DNA from: a virus
Lineage: Duplodnaviria; Heunggongvirae; Uroviricota; Caudoviricetes
Strand: one strand, 5' to 3'
Length of the DNA stretch: 15,072 bases
Virus record (IMG/VR): IMGVR_UViG_3300029862_000313
Shown piece by piece: positions 1,241 to 13,780 of this stretch. Under the pieces are notes generated by a model. The model had not been told where the DNA came from and ran no database searches. It worked only from the letters and a program-made list of their open reading frames with translations. Within the stretch, counting starts at the first letter, position 1; each line of letters starts with the position of its first letter. A program made the position numbers and the translations under genes.

Positions 1241-2131
1241 TCAGGCTGCCAGATCATCGTTTCCGATGGAAGCATAATAAGCTTTTTCTGCTTCTGCCGG
1301 AGGAGTATGGCCCAGCCTTTCCAGCAATCGTCGATTGTTATACCAGTCCACCCACGTGAGTGTGGCCAGTTCCACTTCTGCACGGTTTTTCCAGCTCTTA
1401 CGGTGTATTACCTCCGCTTTGTAAAGACCATTGATGCTCTCCGCCATCGCGTTGTCATACGAGTCGCCTGTACTTCCTGTTGATGCCAGTAATCCGGCTT
1501 CCTTAAGCCGCTGTGTGTAGGCCAGCGATACATACTGAGAACCTTTATCACTGTGATGGACCGTGCCGGACGGTCGACGGGCCCATAACGCCTGCTCCAG
1601 TGCATCCAGCACGAATGTCGTCTCCATGGACGATGAGACCCGCCACCCCACAATGTATCCGGCAAACACATCAATGATGAACGCCACATAGACGAAGCCC
1701 TGCCATGTGCTGACGTAAGTAAAATCAGCCACCCACAGCTGGTCAGGTCGTTCTGCCACGAACTGACGGTTTACGCGGTCGCCTGCGGCAACGGCTTTCC
1801 GGCTGATGGTCGTACGGACCTTTTTACCCCGGAGAACACCGGCAAGTCCCATAACCGCCATGAGACGTGCCACAGTGCATCTGGCCACTCTGATACCTTC
1901 CCGTAACAACTGACGCCAGACTTTACGCACACCGTATACCTTGTGATTTTCATCGTATACGCGCTGTATCTCTTTCTTCAGCCAGTCATCGCGCTGCGCA
2001 CGGGCACTGCGTTTATCCGGATGATGTCGCTGTTGCTGACAGTGGTAATACGTTGACGGGGCAATATGCAGTTCGCTGCATAGCGGTCCGACCCCGTACT
2101 GCTCACGCAGCTTATCCAGCAGTGGCATCAT
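1241..2131 (-). CDS. IS629 transposase OrfB (DDE catalytic domain), normally expressed as OrfAB fusion by -1 frameshift
   Basis: 296-aa ORF with DDE-type integrase-core features (WVADFTYV..., HSDKGSQY..., [15 protein letters not shown]). Overlaps OrfA by 4 nt at the A-run. Confidence 0.9.
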
Positions 2132-2454
2132 TTTTTCCAGAGGCGGTCGAACTCCGCCTTCGCAAAATAAGCGGAAGCCTGGCGAAGGATATCGTTACTG
2201 CGGCGCAGTTCACGATTTTCACGTTCCAGCTCTTTCAGACGCTGACGTTCAGCGGTGGTGAGCCCTCCATCACCGCCCCCGGTATCCCGCTCATGCTGGC
2301 GAACCCAGACACGCAGAGTCTCCGGCGTACAGCCAATCTTTGGAGCAATGGAACAAATTGTCGCCCATTGTGAGTCATATTCGCCCTGACTTTCCAGAAC
2401 CATACGGACTGCCCGTTGACGGACTTCAGGGGAAAAACGAGTATTTTTAGTCAT
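2128..2454 (-). CDS. IS629 transposase OrfA (HTH DNA-binding part)
   Basis: 108-aa ORF with leucine-zipper-like C-terminus ([19 protein letters not shown]). Ends in an A6 run overlapping the OrfB start, typical of an IS3-family -1 frameshift window. Confidence 0.9.
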
Positions 2455-2883: not shown

Positions 2884-3378
2884 TCATTTCCAATTGCAAG
2901 ACTGTGAAATTTTTTCCACAACCTTATCAATCTCAGACAAGTCAAACTCAACTACTTGCATAGTTGATCCATAAGGTTCAAACCCAAAAATAGCTTTTTT
3001 ATGCTTAGCCAAGGTCTTTATAAATTGTATTGGTTGTGGAGCAAATGCAGAATCACCGCCTTCCCCACCTCCCCAAGCACTCTTGACCGGCTTTCCGCCA
3101 TCTAACCGCACTGTAATTCTTGGGTTGTCCGAACCCATATAATCATTGAATGATAAATAGGCATCTGTTTTGTTATCACTACAACGCAACACCAGTGAAG
3201 TTGCACGATCAGTACCTGCTTTGTTATATGAATCTGGTGATAAATTAAGAGCCACAAAGTCAGTCTGGTCAGTCATTTTATTTATCTCAGACTTTGTTAT
3301 CCACGACCCTAACTTCTCTACACCAGCATTTGCAGTAAACGAGGCACTTATGACAAAGGCTATAATAAATTTTCTCAT
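2884..3378 (-). CDS. Secreted protein of unknown function, 164 aa, N-terminal signal peptide (cargo gene in AT-rich segment)
   Basis: Signal peptide MRKFIIAFVISASFTANA followed by a hydrophilic mature domain with a Gly-rich patch (WGGGEGG). Low-GC gene in low-GC flanks with its own terminator. No family recognised. Confidence 0.6.
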   Translation of the reverse strand: MRKFIIAFVISASFTANAGVEKLGSWITKSEINKMTDQTDFVALNLSPDSYNKAGTDRATSLVLRCSDNKTDAYLSFNDYMGSDNPRITVRLDGGKPVKSAWGGGEGGDSAFAPQPIQFIKTLAKHKKAIFGFEPYGSTMQVVEFDLSEIDKVVEKISQSCNWK

Positions 3379-5408: not shown

Positions 5409-5948
5409 TCATATTGCCCCCAGCATGGTGGTCACCATCGCCATTAATGGACCAGCCAGATCCGGGTCCACACGAAACATCGACACAATACCTTCACTCA
5501 TTTCCTTCAGTTTCTGGTGGCGTGGTGCGTTGAGAATGACAGCCTGTTTTGCCTCACTGAGTTCCTTTTCCATTTCAGCCAACCGAGTCATGAAGCTATC
5601 CTGCTCAACCAGGTAACCGCGATATTCCAGCGGTAGTACCGCCAGAATTGCCGGGGTCAGTTCACGCACGTTATTTCGGTATTTTTCAGAATCGAATTTG
5701 TTATCGAGGAAGCGGAACAGCTTCTGGCGTGCACGGCTGACATCATCAGGGAAATCGATGGTGCCGTCGCCCTGCTCCCGATACTCATTCACAATGAGTG
5801 CGGCAACGACATCCTGATTATCTACAGCCGACCAGGCGCGGACGGCATCACGGATTTTTTCGTGGCCTGGAGCTTGTTTTGTTTGAGAACGATTTATCAC
5901 CGCAGTCGGAATAAATCCGCTAGTCTGTTGGTATGTAAGTGGTTGCAT
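5409..5948 (-). CDS. CII-position regulatory protein, 179 aa, possibly YdaT-family (functional analogue of CII)
   Basis: Sits between cro-like and O where lambda has cII. AAGGAG RBS 7 nt upstream of ATG at 5946..5948. Family assignment rests on position and on the Cro partner resembling the YdaS type; the sequence was not confirmed. Confidence 0.5.
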   Translation of the reverse strand: MQPLTYQQTSGFIPTAVINRSQTKQAPGHEKIRDAVRAWSAVDNQDVVAALIVNEYREQGDGTIDFPDDVSRARQKLFRFLDNKFDSEKYRNNVRELTPAILAVLPLEYRGYLVEQDSFMTRLAEMEKELSEAKQAVILNAPRHQKLKEMSEGIVSMFRVDPDLAGPLMAMVTTMLGAI

Positions 5949-6017
5949 AATTGACTCCTTTAGTTTGAATTGACTGTTAAGTTGATTGCTTATTGTTAAA
6001 GAGCGTGAAATGGAAAT

Positions 6018-6248
6018 TTAAGCTGCGTTCTTTTCGGTGTGTGGAAACAACTTCGGAAGATCCGGGCGAATCTGGTATGCCTTCACAACTCCACCAGTAG
6101 CCGTAACAATGCTGCCGACATGTTCAGGGGATACCTTTGCTTTGTTGTGAAGCCACTTATAGACGGCCTGCTGTGAAACTTCGCAGGCATCGCCTAGTTT
6201 CTTTTGTGAACCAACGATATTGATCGCTGTTTTGATTGCTGGGTTCAT
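6018..6248 (-). CDS. cro: Cro-like HTH transcriptional regulator (YdaS/Cro type), 76 aa
   Basis: Divergent from cI across an operator-rich 104-bp intergenic region. HTH-like segment (QKKLGDACEVSQQAVYKWL) and a C-terminal YQIRPDL motif. Confidence 0.7.
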   Translation of the reverse strand: MNPAIKTAINIVGSQKKLGDACEVSQQAVYKWLHNKAKVSPEHVGSIVTATGGVVKAYQIRPDLPKLFPHTEKNAA

Positions 6249-6352: not shown

Positions 6353-7042
6353 ATGAAAACAACACTCTCAGAAAGACTTAAAGAAGCCAGATTAGCGCGA
6401 GGCCTTACACAAAAGGCGCTTGGGGATTTGGTCGGGGTTAGCCAGGCTGCTATTCAGAAAATCGAAACAGGGAAAGCTAACCAAACAACTAAAATCGTGG
6501 AGATCGCGAACGCTTTGGGTGTGCGCGCAGAATGGTTATCTTCTGGCGTTGGAAATATGTCAGACAGTACAGTGCAACCAATACAATCAACTGTCAGCCA
6601 TTCCAAATACTTCAAAATTGACGTTCTTGATATAGAAGTCAGTGCCGGGCCAGGTGTAATCAACCGTGAGTTTGTAGAAGTTCTACGCTCGGTTGAGTAC
6701 TCGTTTGACGATGCTCGTCACATGTTCGATGGCAGGAAGGCGGAAAATATCCGCATCATTAACGTGCGAGGTGACAGCATGTCAGGGACGATCGAACCAG
6801 GTGACCTGCTGTTCGTTGATATCACTGTTAAATCTTTCGACGGTGATGGCATCTATGCGTTTCTGTACGACGACACTGCCCATGTAAAACGTCTTCAAAT
6901 GATGAAGGATAAGCTGCTGGTTATCTCTGATAACAAGAGCTACTCGCCGTGGGACCCGATCGAGAAAGACGAGATGAACCGGGTGTTCATATTCGGTAAG
7001 GTCATTGGAAGCATGCCGCAGACGTACAGGAAGCATGGTTAA
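6353..7042 (+). CDS. cI: CI-type prophage repressor, N-terminal HTH plus C-terminal S24 (LexA-like) autopeptidase domain; not lambda immunity
   Basis: 229 aa. HTH (LTQKALGDLVGVSQAAIQKIETG), candidate Ala-Gly cleavage site (EVSAGPG), Ser nucleophile in GDSMSGTIEPGD and Lys in HVKRL. Unlike remembered lambda cI. Confidence 0.85.
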   Translation: MKTTLSERLKEARLARGLTQKALGDLVGVSQAAIQKIETGKANQTTKIVEIANALGVRAEWLSSGVGNMSDSTVQPIQSTVSHSKYFKIDVLDIEVSAGPGVINREFVEVLRSVEYSFDDARHMFDGRKAENIRIINVRGDSMSGTIEPGDLLFVDITVKSFDGDGIYAFLYDDTAHVKRLQMMKDKLLVISDNKSYSPWDPIEKDEMNRVFIFGKVIGSMPQTYRKHG

Positions 7043-7271: not shown

Positions 7272-7652
7272 ATGAGAAAAATCCTAATCGCTGCCATGAT
7301 GGCATCTGTATTGGCTGGGTGTGCTTCTTCAGGCAACCAGCAACTCAAAAATGAAACTGAAATTAGTGTCCAGTCTAAACTTCAGGAAGGTAAAACAACC
7401 AAGAATGAGGTTAAATCTTACTTTGGTTCTCCTGATGCTGTTTCATATACTGACAGTGGAAACGAGATCTGGAAGTACGCCTTTGCAAAAGTAAAAGTTA
7501 ATGGCACCACTTTTATTCCATTCTATGGATTATTCCATAATGGAACGAACGGTACGAAAAAAGAACTTACTATTCTTTTTAACGATGACACGATTAAGAA
7601 ATACACAATGTCAGAAACCCAAATAAACTCGAAATCAGGTTGGGCTGACTGA
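7272..7652 (+). CDS. Lipoprotein of unknown function, 126 aa, in the rexAB/sieB-equivalent position downstream of cI
   Basis: Signal peptide with lipobox LAGC (Cys18). Preceded by a 229-bp AT-rich spacer and followed by a hairpin terminator. Low GC relative to neighbouring phage genes. Confidence 0.7.
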   Translation: MRKILIAAMMASVLAGCASSGNQQLKNETEISVQSKLQEGKTTKNEVKSYFGSPDAVSYTDSGNEIWKYAFAKVKVNGTTFIPFYGLFHNGTNGTKKELTILFNDDTIKKYTMSETQINSKSGWAD

Positions 7653-7660
7653 TAATCATA

Positions 7661-7690
7661 CCCGGCAACCGCGCCGGGTTTTCTTTTCCT
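7661..7690 (+). terminator. Rho-independent terminator after the lipoprotein gene
   Basis: CCCGGC (7661..7666) pairs with GCCGGG (7673..7678), followed by TTTTCTTTTCC. Confidence 0.7.
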
Positions 7691-7779: not shown

Positions 7780-7860
7780 AATACAACCAGTTATATTTAA
7801 AACAACCGACAAAACAACTTTTGTTGTTGACGATAAAACAACTATAGTTTTAAATAAATT
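7780..7860 (+). promoter_or_regulatory. OL/pL-like operator-promoter region driving the early operon toward gam-bet-exo
   Basis: Operator-like repeats ACAACC (7784..7789, 7802..7807) and palindrome ACAAC-TTTT-GTTGT (7814..7827). Candidate -35 TTGACG (7827..7832) with -10 TTAAAT (7850..7855) at 17-bp spacing. Orientation matches the downstream + strand early genes. Confidence 0.5.
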
Positions 7861-7910
7861 CATCGCAACGACACAACGATACGGTAACCACCTGTTTCAC
7901 CGTTGCGATG
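7861..7910 (+). promoter_or_regulatory. Structured 5' leader: perfect 10-bp inverted repeat (CATCGCAACG ... CGTTGCGATG) with 30-nt loop, immediately downstream of the pL-like promoter
   Basis: 7861..7870 is the exact reverse complement of 7901..7910. Further GC-rich self-complementary segments follow to about 8045 (e.g. GTCGC-N9-GCGAC at 8025..8043). Function not established. Confidence 0.35.
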
Positions 7911-8132
7911 ACCGCTTAGATCCGCAGTTTGAATTTCAGCAGGCTTCGGGGAGTGCGAGGGGTGAAGCGGACGCGTGAACGTCGGTGTGACCAGCTGAAA
8001 TCAACTCAACACTTCATACCTCAGTCGCTTCAACGAGGCGACTTAGTTATGACAACCGGCGGCCATCCACCGCCTGAATACGCGCAGAAGTCTCTATATG
8101 TTCAGCAGCCCAGCTTACGGGCAGGAGTTTTT

Positions 8133-8339
8133 ATGGTTCATCAACATTACGGAACGCAGACCGTTAATCGAGGTGCGGTCATGCCAGGAATGCTGGTCAA
8201 ACACAAAGATGGTACCTGGACTGCATCAGCTAATTTACGCGGACGGCTTTATCTGCATCGCGGCATCGAGCGCACTTATACCCGTGATTTGCTCGTGGAA
8301 GTTTTTCTCGACGGACGCGGTAACGGCCTGAATCGCTAA
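8133..8339 (+). CDS. Hypothetical early protein (68 aa from the AGGAG-associated start; the ORF is open from 7929, 136 aa)
   Basis: Strong RBS AGGAG (8123..8127) 5 nt before ATG at 8133. Occupies the position of lambda N..kil but shows no similarity to either. The stop at 8337..8339 abuts the point where lambda-like sequence resumes (8340). The longer ORF has an Arg-rich N-terminus but no evident RBS. Confidence 0.35.
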
Positions 8340-10814: not shown

Positions 10815-10912
10815 ACATGAAAAGCAAAATCATCAGGGAGCTACAGGCTCCTTTTTTATTATTCGCATTCACCCTCAAGCGTATTAACCAACAATTCAGG
10901 GATTAATGAAAG

Positions 10913-12939: not shown

Positions 12940-12980
12940 TCTACGTCAAATATTACTATATTTCAATGTGTTATAATTAC
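12940..12980 (+). promoter_or_regulatory. Candidate sigma70 promoter with extended -10 (TGTTATAAT) in an AT-rich spacer
   Basis: TGnTATAAT at 12969..12977, with TCAAAT (12945..12950) as a possible -35. Precedes the 80-aa ORF starting at 13008. Confidence 0.45.
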
Positions 12981-13007
12981 CCCGTCCATAAAATGGGGGG
13001 ACACAAA

Positions 13008-13250
13008 ATGTTCAAACGCTGCATCACCAAGTGTGGAAGCACACCTGACATCCAAGCTTTTATTAATGAAGATGGTAAGCTTGTTGTTGAGAGGAGTGGT
13101 CCTTTTATTAGCAAACAACTTATCATTACCTCTCCAGCGGAGATGGCCGGGGAATGGATAGTTTCTGAACCAGAGGAGTTGCACATCCCGCTTCCTTATG
13201 GCCCTCAGGGACTGATTTATAACCGTTATGTTCAGAAGGAGGCGGGTTGA
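13008..13250 (+). CDS. Hypothetical small protein, 80 aa, with its own promoter and RBS
   Basis: GGGGGG RBS 7 nt before ATG at 13008; sequence MFKRCITKCGSTPDIQAFINEDGKLVVERSGPF.... The track ORF begins further upstream at 12966 with no RBS. The overlapping 152-aa - strand ORF has implausible composition. Confidence 0.4.
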   Translation: MFKRCITKCGSTPDIQAFINEDGKLVVERSGPFISKQLIITSPAEMAGEWIVSEPEELHIPLPYGPQGLIYNRYVQKEAG

Positions 13251-13528
13251 CAATGTCAGGCATAACATCGCCGAGAAATCGAAAGAAAAACAGAACAAGG
13301 TAAACGTTGACCTTGCAGCATCAGGCATGGAGTACAGAGAGCGCCTTAACATACCTGTTATCACTGAGCAGGTATCATGAGAGCAACCTGAGCACTCACG
13401 CGAGTATTTCATGGAGCGCATCAGATACTATCGCGAGCAGTCGTTAAACATGCCCAAGGGAAGCAACCCATGGTATATCGATATGGATGAACAGAACGCC
13501 AAGAAGTAAACGCAATTTGAACGAATGC

Positions 13529-13558
13529 GAACCCGCCGAGTGCGGGTTTTCTTTTATC
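13529..13558 (+). terminator. Rho-independent terminator
   Basis: AACCCGC (13531..13537) pairs with GCGGGTT (13543..13549), followed by TTCTTTTAT. Confidence 0.6.
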
Positions 13559-13598
13559 TGAACTCGCTACGGCGAGTTTTGTTTTATGGCGATGATAA

Positions 13599-13766
13599 AT
13601 GCACTTCCGAGTTACAGGTGAATGGAATGGAGAACCATTCAACAGAGTTATCGAAGCCGAGAACATCAGCGACTGCTATAACCACTGGATGCTGTGGGCG
13701 CAGATAGCACATGCAGACGTAACCAATATTCGAATTGAAGAACTGAAAGAACACCAAGCCGCCTGA
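13599..13766 (+). CDS. Small ORF, 55 aa, in the lambda orf55 position just upstream of xis
   Basis: My translation is MHFRVTGEWNGEPFNRVIEAENISDCYNHWMLWAQIAHADVTNIRIEELKEHQAA*. Below the 60-aa track cutoff. Weak RBS. Confidence 0.4.
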   Translation: MHFRVTGEWNGEPFNRVIEAENISDCYNHWMLWAQIAHADVTNIRIEELKEHQAA

Positions 13767-13780
13767 TGGCGGTTTTTTCT
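13756..13780 (+). terminator. Hairpin plus T-run terminator immediately upstream of xis
   Basis: GCCGCC (13758..13763) pairs with GGCGG (13768..13772), followed by TTTTTTCTT. Confidence 0.55.

Follow-up and report, generated by a model that had tools for sequence, protein, structure and literature searches.

How is an early left operon that lacks an N gene transcribed past its intrinsic terminators? This question is raised by the pL leader in a stretch of 15,072 nucleotides (nt) of viral DNA (IMG/VR record IMGVR_UViG_3300029862_000313), referred to as the window, which is a defective lambda-like Escherichia coli prophage without an N gene. The leader comprises about 270 untranslated nt from the predicted pL start to the ATG at 8133 and is composed of three modules, A, B and C. 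Together with the pL promoter (7780-8140, 361 nt), it matches the chromosome of strain 582 at 100% identity. From the letters of the window, the original prediction had proposed that this leader holds either a cis-acting antitermination RNA of the HK022 put type or a divergent nut site with an unrecognised antiterminator. The positional part of this idea was retained: module B, a conserved structured RNA, lies in the slot that is occupied by putL in HK639 and CobraSix and by nutL in phi80. Module B itself, however, is neither a put RNA nor a recognisable nut site, and it is described here as a candidate cis-acting antitermination element of its own.

Terminators and absence of N in the early left operon

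Downstream of the leader, the plus strand encodes kil, gam, bet, exo, homologues of orf60a/63/61, a TraR-like gene, small genes, xis and int. A total of 22 terminator-like sites was found in the plus-strand region, compared to 9.2 ± 2.8 in shuffled sequences. The strong terminator behind the orf61 homologue (10835-10853) is identical to lambda 30669-30691, located between orf61 and ea22. The hairpins upstream of xis and int that had been named as terminators at the outset were recovered as terminator-like sites in the same scan (13529-13549, 13560-13579 and 13756-13775). In the related loci L196 and L153, strong terminators (t1) lie between module B and the downstream genes. The 10835-10853 terminator is also found in the phages Perceval and PhiR26_1 and is the one strong terminator common to all these pL operons.

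Searches with tblastn using lambda N, phi80 N and Nun returned nothing in the window, in Perceval, in PhiR26_1 or in the contigs that carry module B. The statement that the first open reading frame (ORF) does not resemble lambda N was borne out, both by the negative lambda N search of the window and by the lack of a Pfam or PHROG match for the ORF upstream of kil. The same leader is found in plaque-forming relatives such as PhiR26_1, Perceval and 4A7, whose complete annotated genomes hold Q and no N.

Module B is a conserved structured RNA

Module B begins about 45 nt after the predicted pL start and contains two hairpins, B1 and B2 (Table 1). The B1 loop AAUUUCAG is invariant. In the B1 stem, two-sided changes are seen at two pairs (A-U to C-G; G-C to A-U), and a third pair goes from U-G to C-G. 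B2 is present in the minimum-energy fold of all three lineages examined; its pair 7971/7982 changes from A-U to G-C, and pair 7967/7986 is seen as G-U, A-U and G-C. Across both hairpins, four base pairs differ on both sides between lineages. In the alignment of module B, 94.8% of the cells are paired, compared to 29-39% with slid partners. Within E. coli, the common polymorphisms at paired positions are all wobble-compatible transitions, and pair-breaking variants are singletons. The tail GCUGAAAU is complementary to the B1 loop, which suggests that loop and tail may form a pseudoknot helix. Both partners are conserved, the sole variation is a wobble-compatible A to G change, and the helix competes with B1 in single-sequence folding. 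Folding and covariation analysis, which had been suggested together with the original prediction, hence places a conserved, structured, non-coding RNA element in the leader. The further self-complementary segments predicted downstream of the first repeat were found as hairpins up to 8051 (B1 7926-7945, B2 7961-7992 and, in module C, HP1 8015-8051), but the overall stability is modest (z = -1.96 for the whole 7850-8060 stretch).

Homologues of module B are widespread. It is present at at least 90% identity in 2210 of 5426 complete E. coli genomes, in one or two copies each, and nearly all of the E. coli matches listed have no annotated feature over it; in some phage records it is buried in an over-extended 'Kil' ORF. 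Homologues with 81% identity were found in about 20 further IMG/VR and metagenome contigs, and homologues occur behind at least ten different operator/promoter (immunity) types. With covariance model R2, the window, Perceval and PhiR26_1 gave a single match each (117.8-119.9 bits), and all other scores were at noise level. Module B is tied neither to one immunity type nor to one first gene (kil, HNH, TerB-like, MADKK... and others), as expected for an autonomous cis element, and it lies at a variable distance from any start codon. No protein common to all B-bearing loci was found among the window proteins, at an incomplete coverage given by the fragmentary loci. A metagenome scan for further module B lineages recovered known types only.

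At the gathering threshold, Rfam returned nothing in the leader, and at a permissive threshold only chance-level matches (E > 1). The homologous loci had no Rfam family match either, and module B matches no known small RNA (sRNA) or riboswitch family therein. The prophage sRNAs AgvB/AsxR and the Pas sRNAs were considered as the leader element and set aside; in the literature these map elsewhere in prophages. A full-text literature search of incomplete coverage yielded no description of module B.

In the L196-type leaders (L196 4497-4900, minus strand; also L241 and relatives), module B is followed by a three-codon mini-ORF (AUG AAG CAC UAA) behind a strong Shine-Dalgarno sequence. After the mini-ORF, about 400 nt are apparently non-coding and GC-rich; a 47-nt stretch therein matches 16S rRNA 237-283 (RF00177, 37 bits, E = 9e-8).

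Module B occupies the position of putL and nutL

In several phages, pL is followed by a 5' module, CCATCGAAACGAAACATCGACAGCTGAGCGAAGTTAGCCAGCGG. What comes after this module differs between phages. In phi80 and HK225, it is followed by an annotated nutL with boxA and boxB and then by N, the latter being annotated in phi80 only. In HK639 and CobraSix, a putL-like antiterminator RNA is found instead, as annotated in GenBank and as recognized by a covariance model of put RNAs (R1, 98 bits; see below). In the L196/L255 group, the 5' module is followed by module B, an order seen in 20-odd IMG/VR and metagenome contigs.

The exchange is most clearly seen in L257 and HK639. Both share 96% identity over 54 nt upstream and 150 nt downstream as well as the same first gene, and they differ in the slot only, where 107 nt with module B replace the 87-nt put segment. 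Similarly, L255 and L261 have HK022-type operators, followed by module B where HK022 has putL. Among 100 contig segments that bear the intergenic cassette described below as module C, 23 have a put match, two have module B and none has both.

The 3' flank that follows either putL or module B, ACCAGCAGCUCUUUGCGAGGGGCUGACGG, contains a boxA-like sequence, GCUCUUUG, in the loop of a CAGC/GCUG stem (L110 1600-1640; L255, L257, L247 and L153). This boxA-like sequence is kept in put-bearing and B-bearing leaders and is absent from the window.

Comparison with known antitermination systems

A put RNA needs no factor besides RNA polymerase for read-through in cis, which it brings about via the beta' zinc-binding domain. 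The activity of put RNAs has been established genetically, biochemically and by cryo-electron microscopy (PMC9378689). Model R1 was built from seven put RNAs and gave 35-103 bits on controls. In the window, its best match reached 6.6 bits (E = 0.85) and is located outside the leader, and no match was obtained at module B in eight B-bearing or related loci. The put profile consists of two stem-loops with the invariant blocks GAACGGC, GUCGG, GGCGGG, CAGGAnGA and CAAU, the first four of which module B lacks. Compared to the put RNAs (HK022 putL and putR; the putL-like RNAs of HK639, CobraSix, phiEt88 and S9-5), module B is likewise located in the pL leader, tens of nt from the start, is similar in size (about 70-100 nt), has two hairpins and belongs to N-less phages with terminators in their early left operons. 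In L257 and L255, it lies exactly at the HK639 putL position within flanks of 96% identity. It differs in having neither sequence nor covariance-model similarity to put and, instead of the put triple helix, a possible loop-tail pseudoknot. HK022 and HK75 carry a second copy after pR (putR). Module B, in contrast, has no second pR copy, with one copy each in the window, Perceval and PhiR26_1. In the 3-kb stretch of HK639 that was examined, only putL is annotated.

The nutL/N systems of lambda, phi80 and HK225 share with the window the same type of operon downstream, including the lambda terminator mentioned above, and in phi80 and HK225 nutL follows the common 5' module in the slot of module B. 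The leader of the window differs from them in lacking boxA, a short hairpin of the boxB type, an N protein and a matching site on the pR side; in N systems, nut sites are found in both early operons. When the plus strand was searched for boxA (CGCUCUU(U)A) with up to two mismatches, none was found in 7860-8132, the nearest sequence being CGCUUAGA. Without boxA and without a boxB/N pair, this leader holds no recognisable nut site.

A symmetrical element on the pR side (5949..6017), which the original prediction had suggested looking for, was found neither by blastn nor with model R2. A consensus boxA is located there instead, at the nutR position (Table 1). It is 12/13 identical to the boxA of rrn operons and has no boxB hairpin and no N gene at its side; YGCTCTTTA has no other exact match in the window. 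This boxA is kept in PhiR26_1 but absent in Perceval and other phages with module B. With regard to the boxA/Nus antitermination of rrn operons and clustered regularly interspaced short palindromic repeat (CRISPR) arrays, the prophage thus has a perfect boxA, in the other operon than module B. As far as is known, complexes formed on boxA alone mainly counter Rho, not intrinsic terminators.

Two further systems can be compared. The eps-associated RNA (EAR) of Bacillus is a cis-acting processive antitermination RNA in an operon leader. It represents the same concept, namely a structured operon RNA that renders the polymerase terminator-resistant with no dedicated phage protein, but organism, sequence and context are unrelated; the comparison was made via the Rfam scan only and gave no match. 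The lambda N leader contains an RNase III hairpin, and ompA a 5'-terminal stabiliser hairpin. Like these, the leader of the window is long and structured, with a hairpin at +1 (module A) and hairpins at the first ribosome-binding site (module C). Leaders of this type explain modules A and C, but not a module B that swaps with putL.

The leader upstream of kil is non-coding

The first gene of the pL operon is kil, whose product matches phrog_294 over residues 1-67 (E = 1.7e-37). Precomputed PF27398 assignments were present on all 133 Kil homologues, most of which have 68 residues. The start at ATG 8133 lies behind AGGAG and is the same in the annotation of the Prokaryotic Genome Annotation Pipeline and in most homologues.

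The long ORF starting at 7929 (7929-8339) had been considered as a possible antiterminator with an arginine-rich motif (ARM). For a comparison of polymorphism, 57 distinct haplotypes out of 80 viral contigs were used. In kil (8133-8339), the variable sites are distributed over the codon positions as 1/2/17, i.e. 17 of 20 at position 3, with 19 synonymous and three non-synonymous changes and no stop or indel variants. In 7929-8048, the corresponding distribution is 9/5/7, with eight synonymous and 13 non-synonymous changes. Furthermore, four haplotypes have a CAG to TAG stop at 8022, and indels of 1 nt and 5 nt cause frameshifts. A tblastn search with the Arg-rich peptide matched the same leaders and nothing else. 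Given the nonsense and frameshift variants and the missing codon-position bias, the segment is non-coding and the proposal of an ARM antiterminator was discarded. The segment 7962-8048 was also considered as a remnant of the arginine-rich N-terminus of N; this was dropped, as tblastn recovered only these leaders and the homology of L196-type loci stops at 8001, with unrelated sequence beyond.

Modules A and C flank module B

The predicted pL promoter has a -35 element TTGACG (7827-7832), a 17-nt spacer and a -10 element TTAAAT (7850-7855). A consensus promoter scan of the window did not list this site because position 2 of its -10 element is T. As the annotated pL of phi80 has the same spacing and the same first transcribed letters, (C)ATCG.AACGA, we infer a transcript start at about 7861-7862, which would make hairpin A 5'-terminal.

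Module A corresponds to the perfect 10-bp repeat of the original prediction (7861..7870 and 7901..7910), which is real and actually extends over 11 bp: TCATCGCAACG (7860-7870) pairs with CGTTGCGATGA (7901-7911) around a loop of 30 nt. It is the sole perfect inverted repeat of at least 11 bp with a loop of up to 40 nt in the window. Dinucleotide shuffles contain 0.18 such repeats per window, and 12% of them at least one, so that the existence of the repeat by itself is only mildly unusual. What is notable about hairpin A is its stability (-19 kcal/mol, z = -4.7, 0/200 shuffles equally stable) and its position at the predicted +1 of pL. Among E. coli genomes, mosaic breakpoints are found at the start of the hairpin (7862/7863) and inside it. 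Where the 5' arm is part of the immunity-specific DNA, as in three E. coli immunity types, G-U wobbles still allow it to pair with the conserved 3' arm. Module A represents the local form of a 5' leader module, CCATCGAAACGAAACATCGA..., that is common to phi80, HK225 and HK639. The first ~50 nt represent a diverged form of the 5' module CCAUCGAAACGAAACAUCGA..., which is shared by the module-B contigs, phi80, HK225, HK639 and CobraSix; the homology of the first ~25 nt is seen in the alignment. The perfect hairpin that had been singled out is hence not the conserved core of the leader but a local form of its 5' closing helix.

Module C (8015-8132, about 120 nt) is a cassette of lambdoid early left operons that is found between genes in HK225, HK639, Enterobacter phage ENT1 and over 100 IMG/VR contigs (nhmmer match of the window, E = 5e-35). 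The last 120 nt of the leader thus turned out to be a separate widespread intergenic cassette, apart from the antitermination candidate. Its layout is CAUAC, HP1, UUAGUUAUGACAACC, HP2, GCGCAGAAGUCU, GUUC, HP3 and a Shine-Dalgarno sequence. Elsewhere, the intrinsic terminator t1 usually precedes the cassette, and the genes behind the cassette are diverse; the window has no t1. In HP1, 9/15 pairs change on both sides among 49 sequences (z = -4.75). The tested cassette structure has 94.8% of its cells paired, compared to 31-51% with slid partners, and 0/500 shuffles attain such values. Some homologues have a T run behind HP2, and in HK639 the hairpin is annotated as a terminator; the window has no such T run. 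Variants of HP2 (GCGG..CCGC) retain the pairing though the encoded peptide differs. The GCGCAGAAGUCU motif is read in three frames among homologues and is therefore conserved as nucleotides. With four variable sites in 84 nt, the kil-proximal part of the leader is the least polymorphic.

A short ORF starting at AUG 8049 (MTTGGHPPP...) was considered as a conserved leader peptide and judged improbable as such, since the peptide differs in homologues that keep the hairpin and the downstream motif occurs in three frames; conservation around this AUG is probably at the RNA level, and the ORF may still be translated. Segment GACCAGCUG (7990-7998) was likewise rejected as a decayed t1, being conserved within module B of L196-type leaders. 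Further cassette copies are found at L110 2620-2787, L116 2481-2651, L119 and L120-L239, with up to two per operon (L153), and have no Rfam family. In some copies, the GGCGGCCAUCCACCGCC hairpin of the cassette is a terminator. In Citrobacter, Kluyvera, Leclercia, Enterobacter and other genera (L006-L020, kil at 3001), kil is also the first pL gene, and the leader consists of just a 5' hairpin (CAUCGACAAC...GUUGUC or similar) and the 3' half of the cassette (GCGCAUnAGG...AACGUUCCGCCAGCCUGGCGACAAGGGCAA); L013 and L014 have HK022-type operators.

Genomic context of the prophage

The features of the leader and its surroundings are listed in Table 1. The O and P genes are encoded on the minus strand, and the rest of the right operon is cut off by an IS3-family insertion element (1241-2454; ORFs 2454..2128 and 2131..1241) that interrupts the nin region. 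This element contains an ALIL frameshifting pseudoknot (2057-2173, minus strand, 120 bits). As Q, lysis and structural genes are missing within the window, the prophage copy is defective. Between cI and pL, at the position of lambda rexAB, a gene for a BamE-like lipoprotein (7272..7652, plus strand) with its own terminator (7660-7679) represents a lysogenic-conversion moron; Perceval has two different genes there. Inside the pL operon, an ORF of 152 residues on the minus strand (12963-13421) is flanked by the tandem plus-strand terminators at 13529-13579 and resembles a moron insertion that separates the early genes from xis.

Table 1 Coordinates of the pL leader, its modules and neighboring features in the window
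Feature	Position	Strand	Remarks
cII-like YdaT gene	5948..5409	-	
Consensus boxA CGCUCUUUAACAA	5993..6005	-	pR transcript, between ydaS and ydaT (nutR position)
cro-like gene, YdaS family	6248..6018	-	
cI	6353..7042	+	
OL operator repeats (AAAACAAC-type half sites) and pL promoter	7780..7859	+	read from sequence
Module A stem-loop	7860..7911	+	11-bp perfect stem, 30-nt loop
Module B, conserved structured RNA, 98 nt	7906..8003	+	candidate cis-acting antitermination element
Hairpin B1	7922..7949	+	inner stem 7926-7931/7940-7945, outer stem 7922-7924/7947-7949
Hairpin B2	7961..7992	+	7961-7963/7990-7992, 7967-7968/7985-7986, 7970-7973/7980-7983; loop variable
Tail GCUGAAAU	7994..8001	+	complementary to B1 loop (7933-7940)
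HP1	8015..8051	+	CAUACCUCAGUCGC-loop-GCGACUUAGUUAUG, loop UUCAnnGAG; AUG 8049 pairs with CAU 8015
HP2	8058..8074	+	GGCGG-CCAUCCA-CCGCC, nearly invariant
Module C 3' half	8082..8127	+	GCGCAGAAGUCU motif 8082-8093, GUUC, HP3 (GCCC 8108-8111/GGGC 8119-8122), Shine-Dalgarno AGGAG 8123-8127
kil	8133..8339	+	KilR-type cell-division inhibitor, 68 residues, first pL-operon gene
Strong intrinsic terminator after orf61 homologue	10835..10853	+	terminator scan
Two tandem terminator-like hairpins	13529-13549, 13560-13579	+	upstream of xis/int
Terminator-like hairpin	13756..13775	+	just upstream of xis (13806)

Proposed function of module B and alternative explanations

The anatomy of the leader, its non-coding nature, its conservation and covariation, the equivalence of module B in position to putL and nutL and the absence of N are established. 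From position and conservation, we infer a role of module B in antitermination, including that it causes terminator read-through and does so free of protein. Antitermination in cis is the best reading of module B because it sits in the putL slot of HK639 and CobraSix and in the nutL slot of phi80. In the proposed mechanism, the stem-loop of module A would close, and probably protect, the 5' end of the transcript from +1 on. Module B would then fold on the nascent transcript into its two hairpins, with the loop of the first pairing to the 3' tail, and would stay bound to its own RNA polymerase in cis, like a put RNA. A polymerase modified in this manner would resist the intrinsic terminators at 10835, 13529/13560 and 13756, and the read-through would allow kil-gam-bet-exo up to xis-int to be expressed without an N protein. 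The module C hairpins around the ribosome-binding region would probably tune translation or stability of the next gene, here kil. That module B is a new cis-acting antitermination RNA analogous to put, with no need for N, is given slightly less than an even chance.

Several observations weigh against this reading. The mechanism is argued from position only, module B being unlike put in sequence and modelled structure, and the common slot could be a recombination hot spot instead of a functional position. Only about four module B lineages are available, so that the covariation amounts to a handful of events, and none of the changes in the putative loop-tail helix is two-sided. Module B (7906-8003) is also no more stable than shuffled sequences (z = +0.5 to -0.6); its modelled structure is backed by comparison, not by folding energy. 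Leaders of other genera with kil as the first gene (L007-L013, L017 and L020) have no nut, put or B in the DNA searched. Finally, there is no copy of B in the pR operon, though terminator-like sites lie between P and Q in Perceval and PhiR26_1; with such sites before Q and no B, these phages must handle pR termination by other means.

Among the alternatives, a protein-coding role is extremely improbable. The ORF 7929-8339, or a shorter version from the GTG at 7962, would encode an Arg-rich N-like antiterminator or its remnant; the translated KRTRERR does resemble arginine-rich motifs, and GGGGAG is located 8 nt upstream of the GTG. The polymorphism data and the searches described above speak against it (no third-position bias, the stop at 8022, indels, no family match, tblastn hits to the same leaders only), as do the L196-type homologues, which continue with unrelated sequence, and the length of the Kil homologues (68 residues). 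It is also very improbable that module B is a divergent member of the HK022 put family. Position, size and the two-hairpin layout agree, and CGGGCAAUGG of the L196-type copies recurs in the invariant put motif CGGCAAUG, but model R1 finds nothing in any B-bearing leader, as opposed to 35-103 bits on true put RNAs, and the invariant blocks are absent. Another possibility, considered unlikely, is that module B is not an autonomous RNA but, in the manner of a nut site, recruits an unrecognised protein of phage or host, i.e. an analogue of N. The nutL in the same slot of phi80 and HK225 would be in line with this, as would the invariance of the B1 loop GAAUUUCAGC and of segment ACCGCUUAGA, since protein-binding sites are often invariant. 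The consensus boxA on the pR side of this immunity type implies, moreover, that Nus factors may be used; that boxA, however, is absent in other B-bearing phages. The leader itself lacks boxA, no homologue of N, Nun or phi80 N was found, the genes after B vary with no window protein common to all B-bearing loci (at incomplete coverage), and the pR operon has no second site, unlike in N systems.

Alternatively, the leader may be unrelated to termination and act as a 5' untranslated region that governs stability, processing or translation of the early left mRNA, by RNase E protection, RNase III sites, occlusion of the kil ribosome-binding site or a processed sRNA. KilR and lambda Kil are known as toxic, and tight control of a toxic Kil is plausible. 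Hairpin A is very stable and located at +1, HP1 pairs an AUG, HP3 adjoins the kil Shine-Dalgarno sequence, and the kil-proximal 84 nt are the least polymorphic. A role in such control is very likely correct for modules A and C. As an explanation of module B it is rather doubtful, as module B is also found where kil is not the first gene, varies in its distance to any start codon, matches no known sRNA or riboswitch family, and replaces putL and occupies the nutL slot in a way that translation control leaves unexplained.

Implications for lambdoid phages

To our knowledge, very few systems of RNA-only processive antitermination are known (put and EAR), and early-terminator read-through in many N-less lambdoid phages is largely unstudied. 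For one such N-less phage, a genome paper guesses a 'put-like' element (PMC12315714). Somewhat more tentatively than the cis-acting role itself, module B may be seen as an antiterminator RNA of a second class, which modifies the polymerase with a structure unrelated to that of put, in cis and free of phage protein. It would so far have escaped notice in prophage pL leaders of about 40% of E. coli strains, sequence type 131 (ST131) and O157:H7 strains among them.

Irrespective of its function, module B deserves a family entry as a structured RNA that is conserved and unannotated. If the antitermination reading is true, RNA polymerase would be reprogrammable by more than one RNA fold. HK639 and the L257-type phages would then represent a natural swap experiment, for which the plaque-forming phages PhiR26_1 and Perceval exist. 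The element would also matter for induction, excision and the expression of recombination genes in the prophages of two-fifths of the sequenced E. coli.

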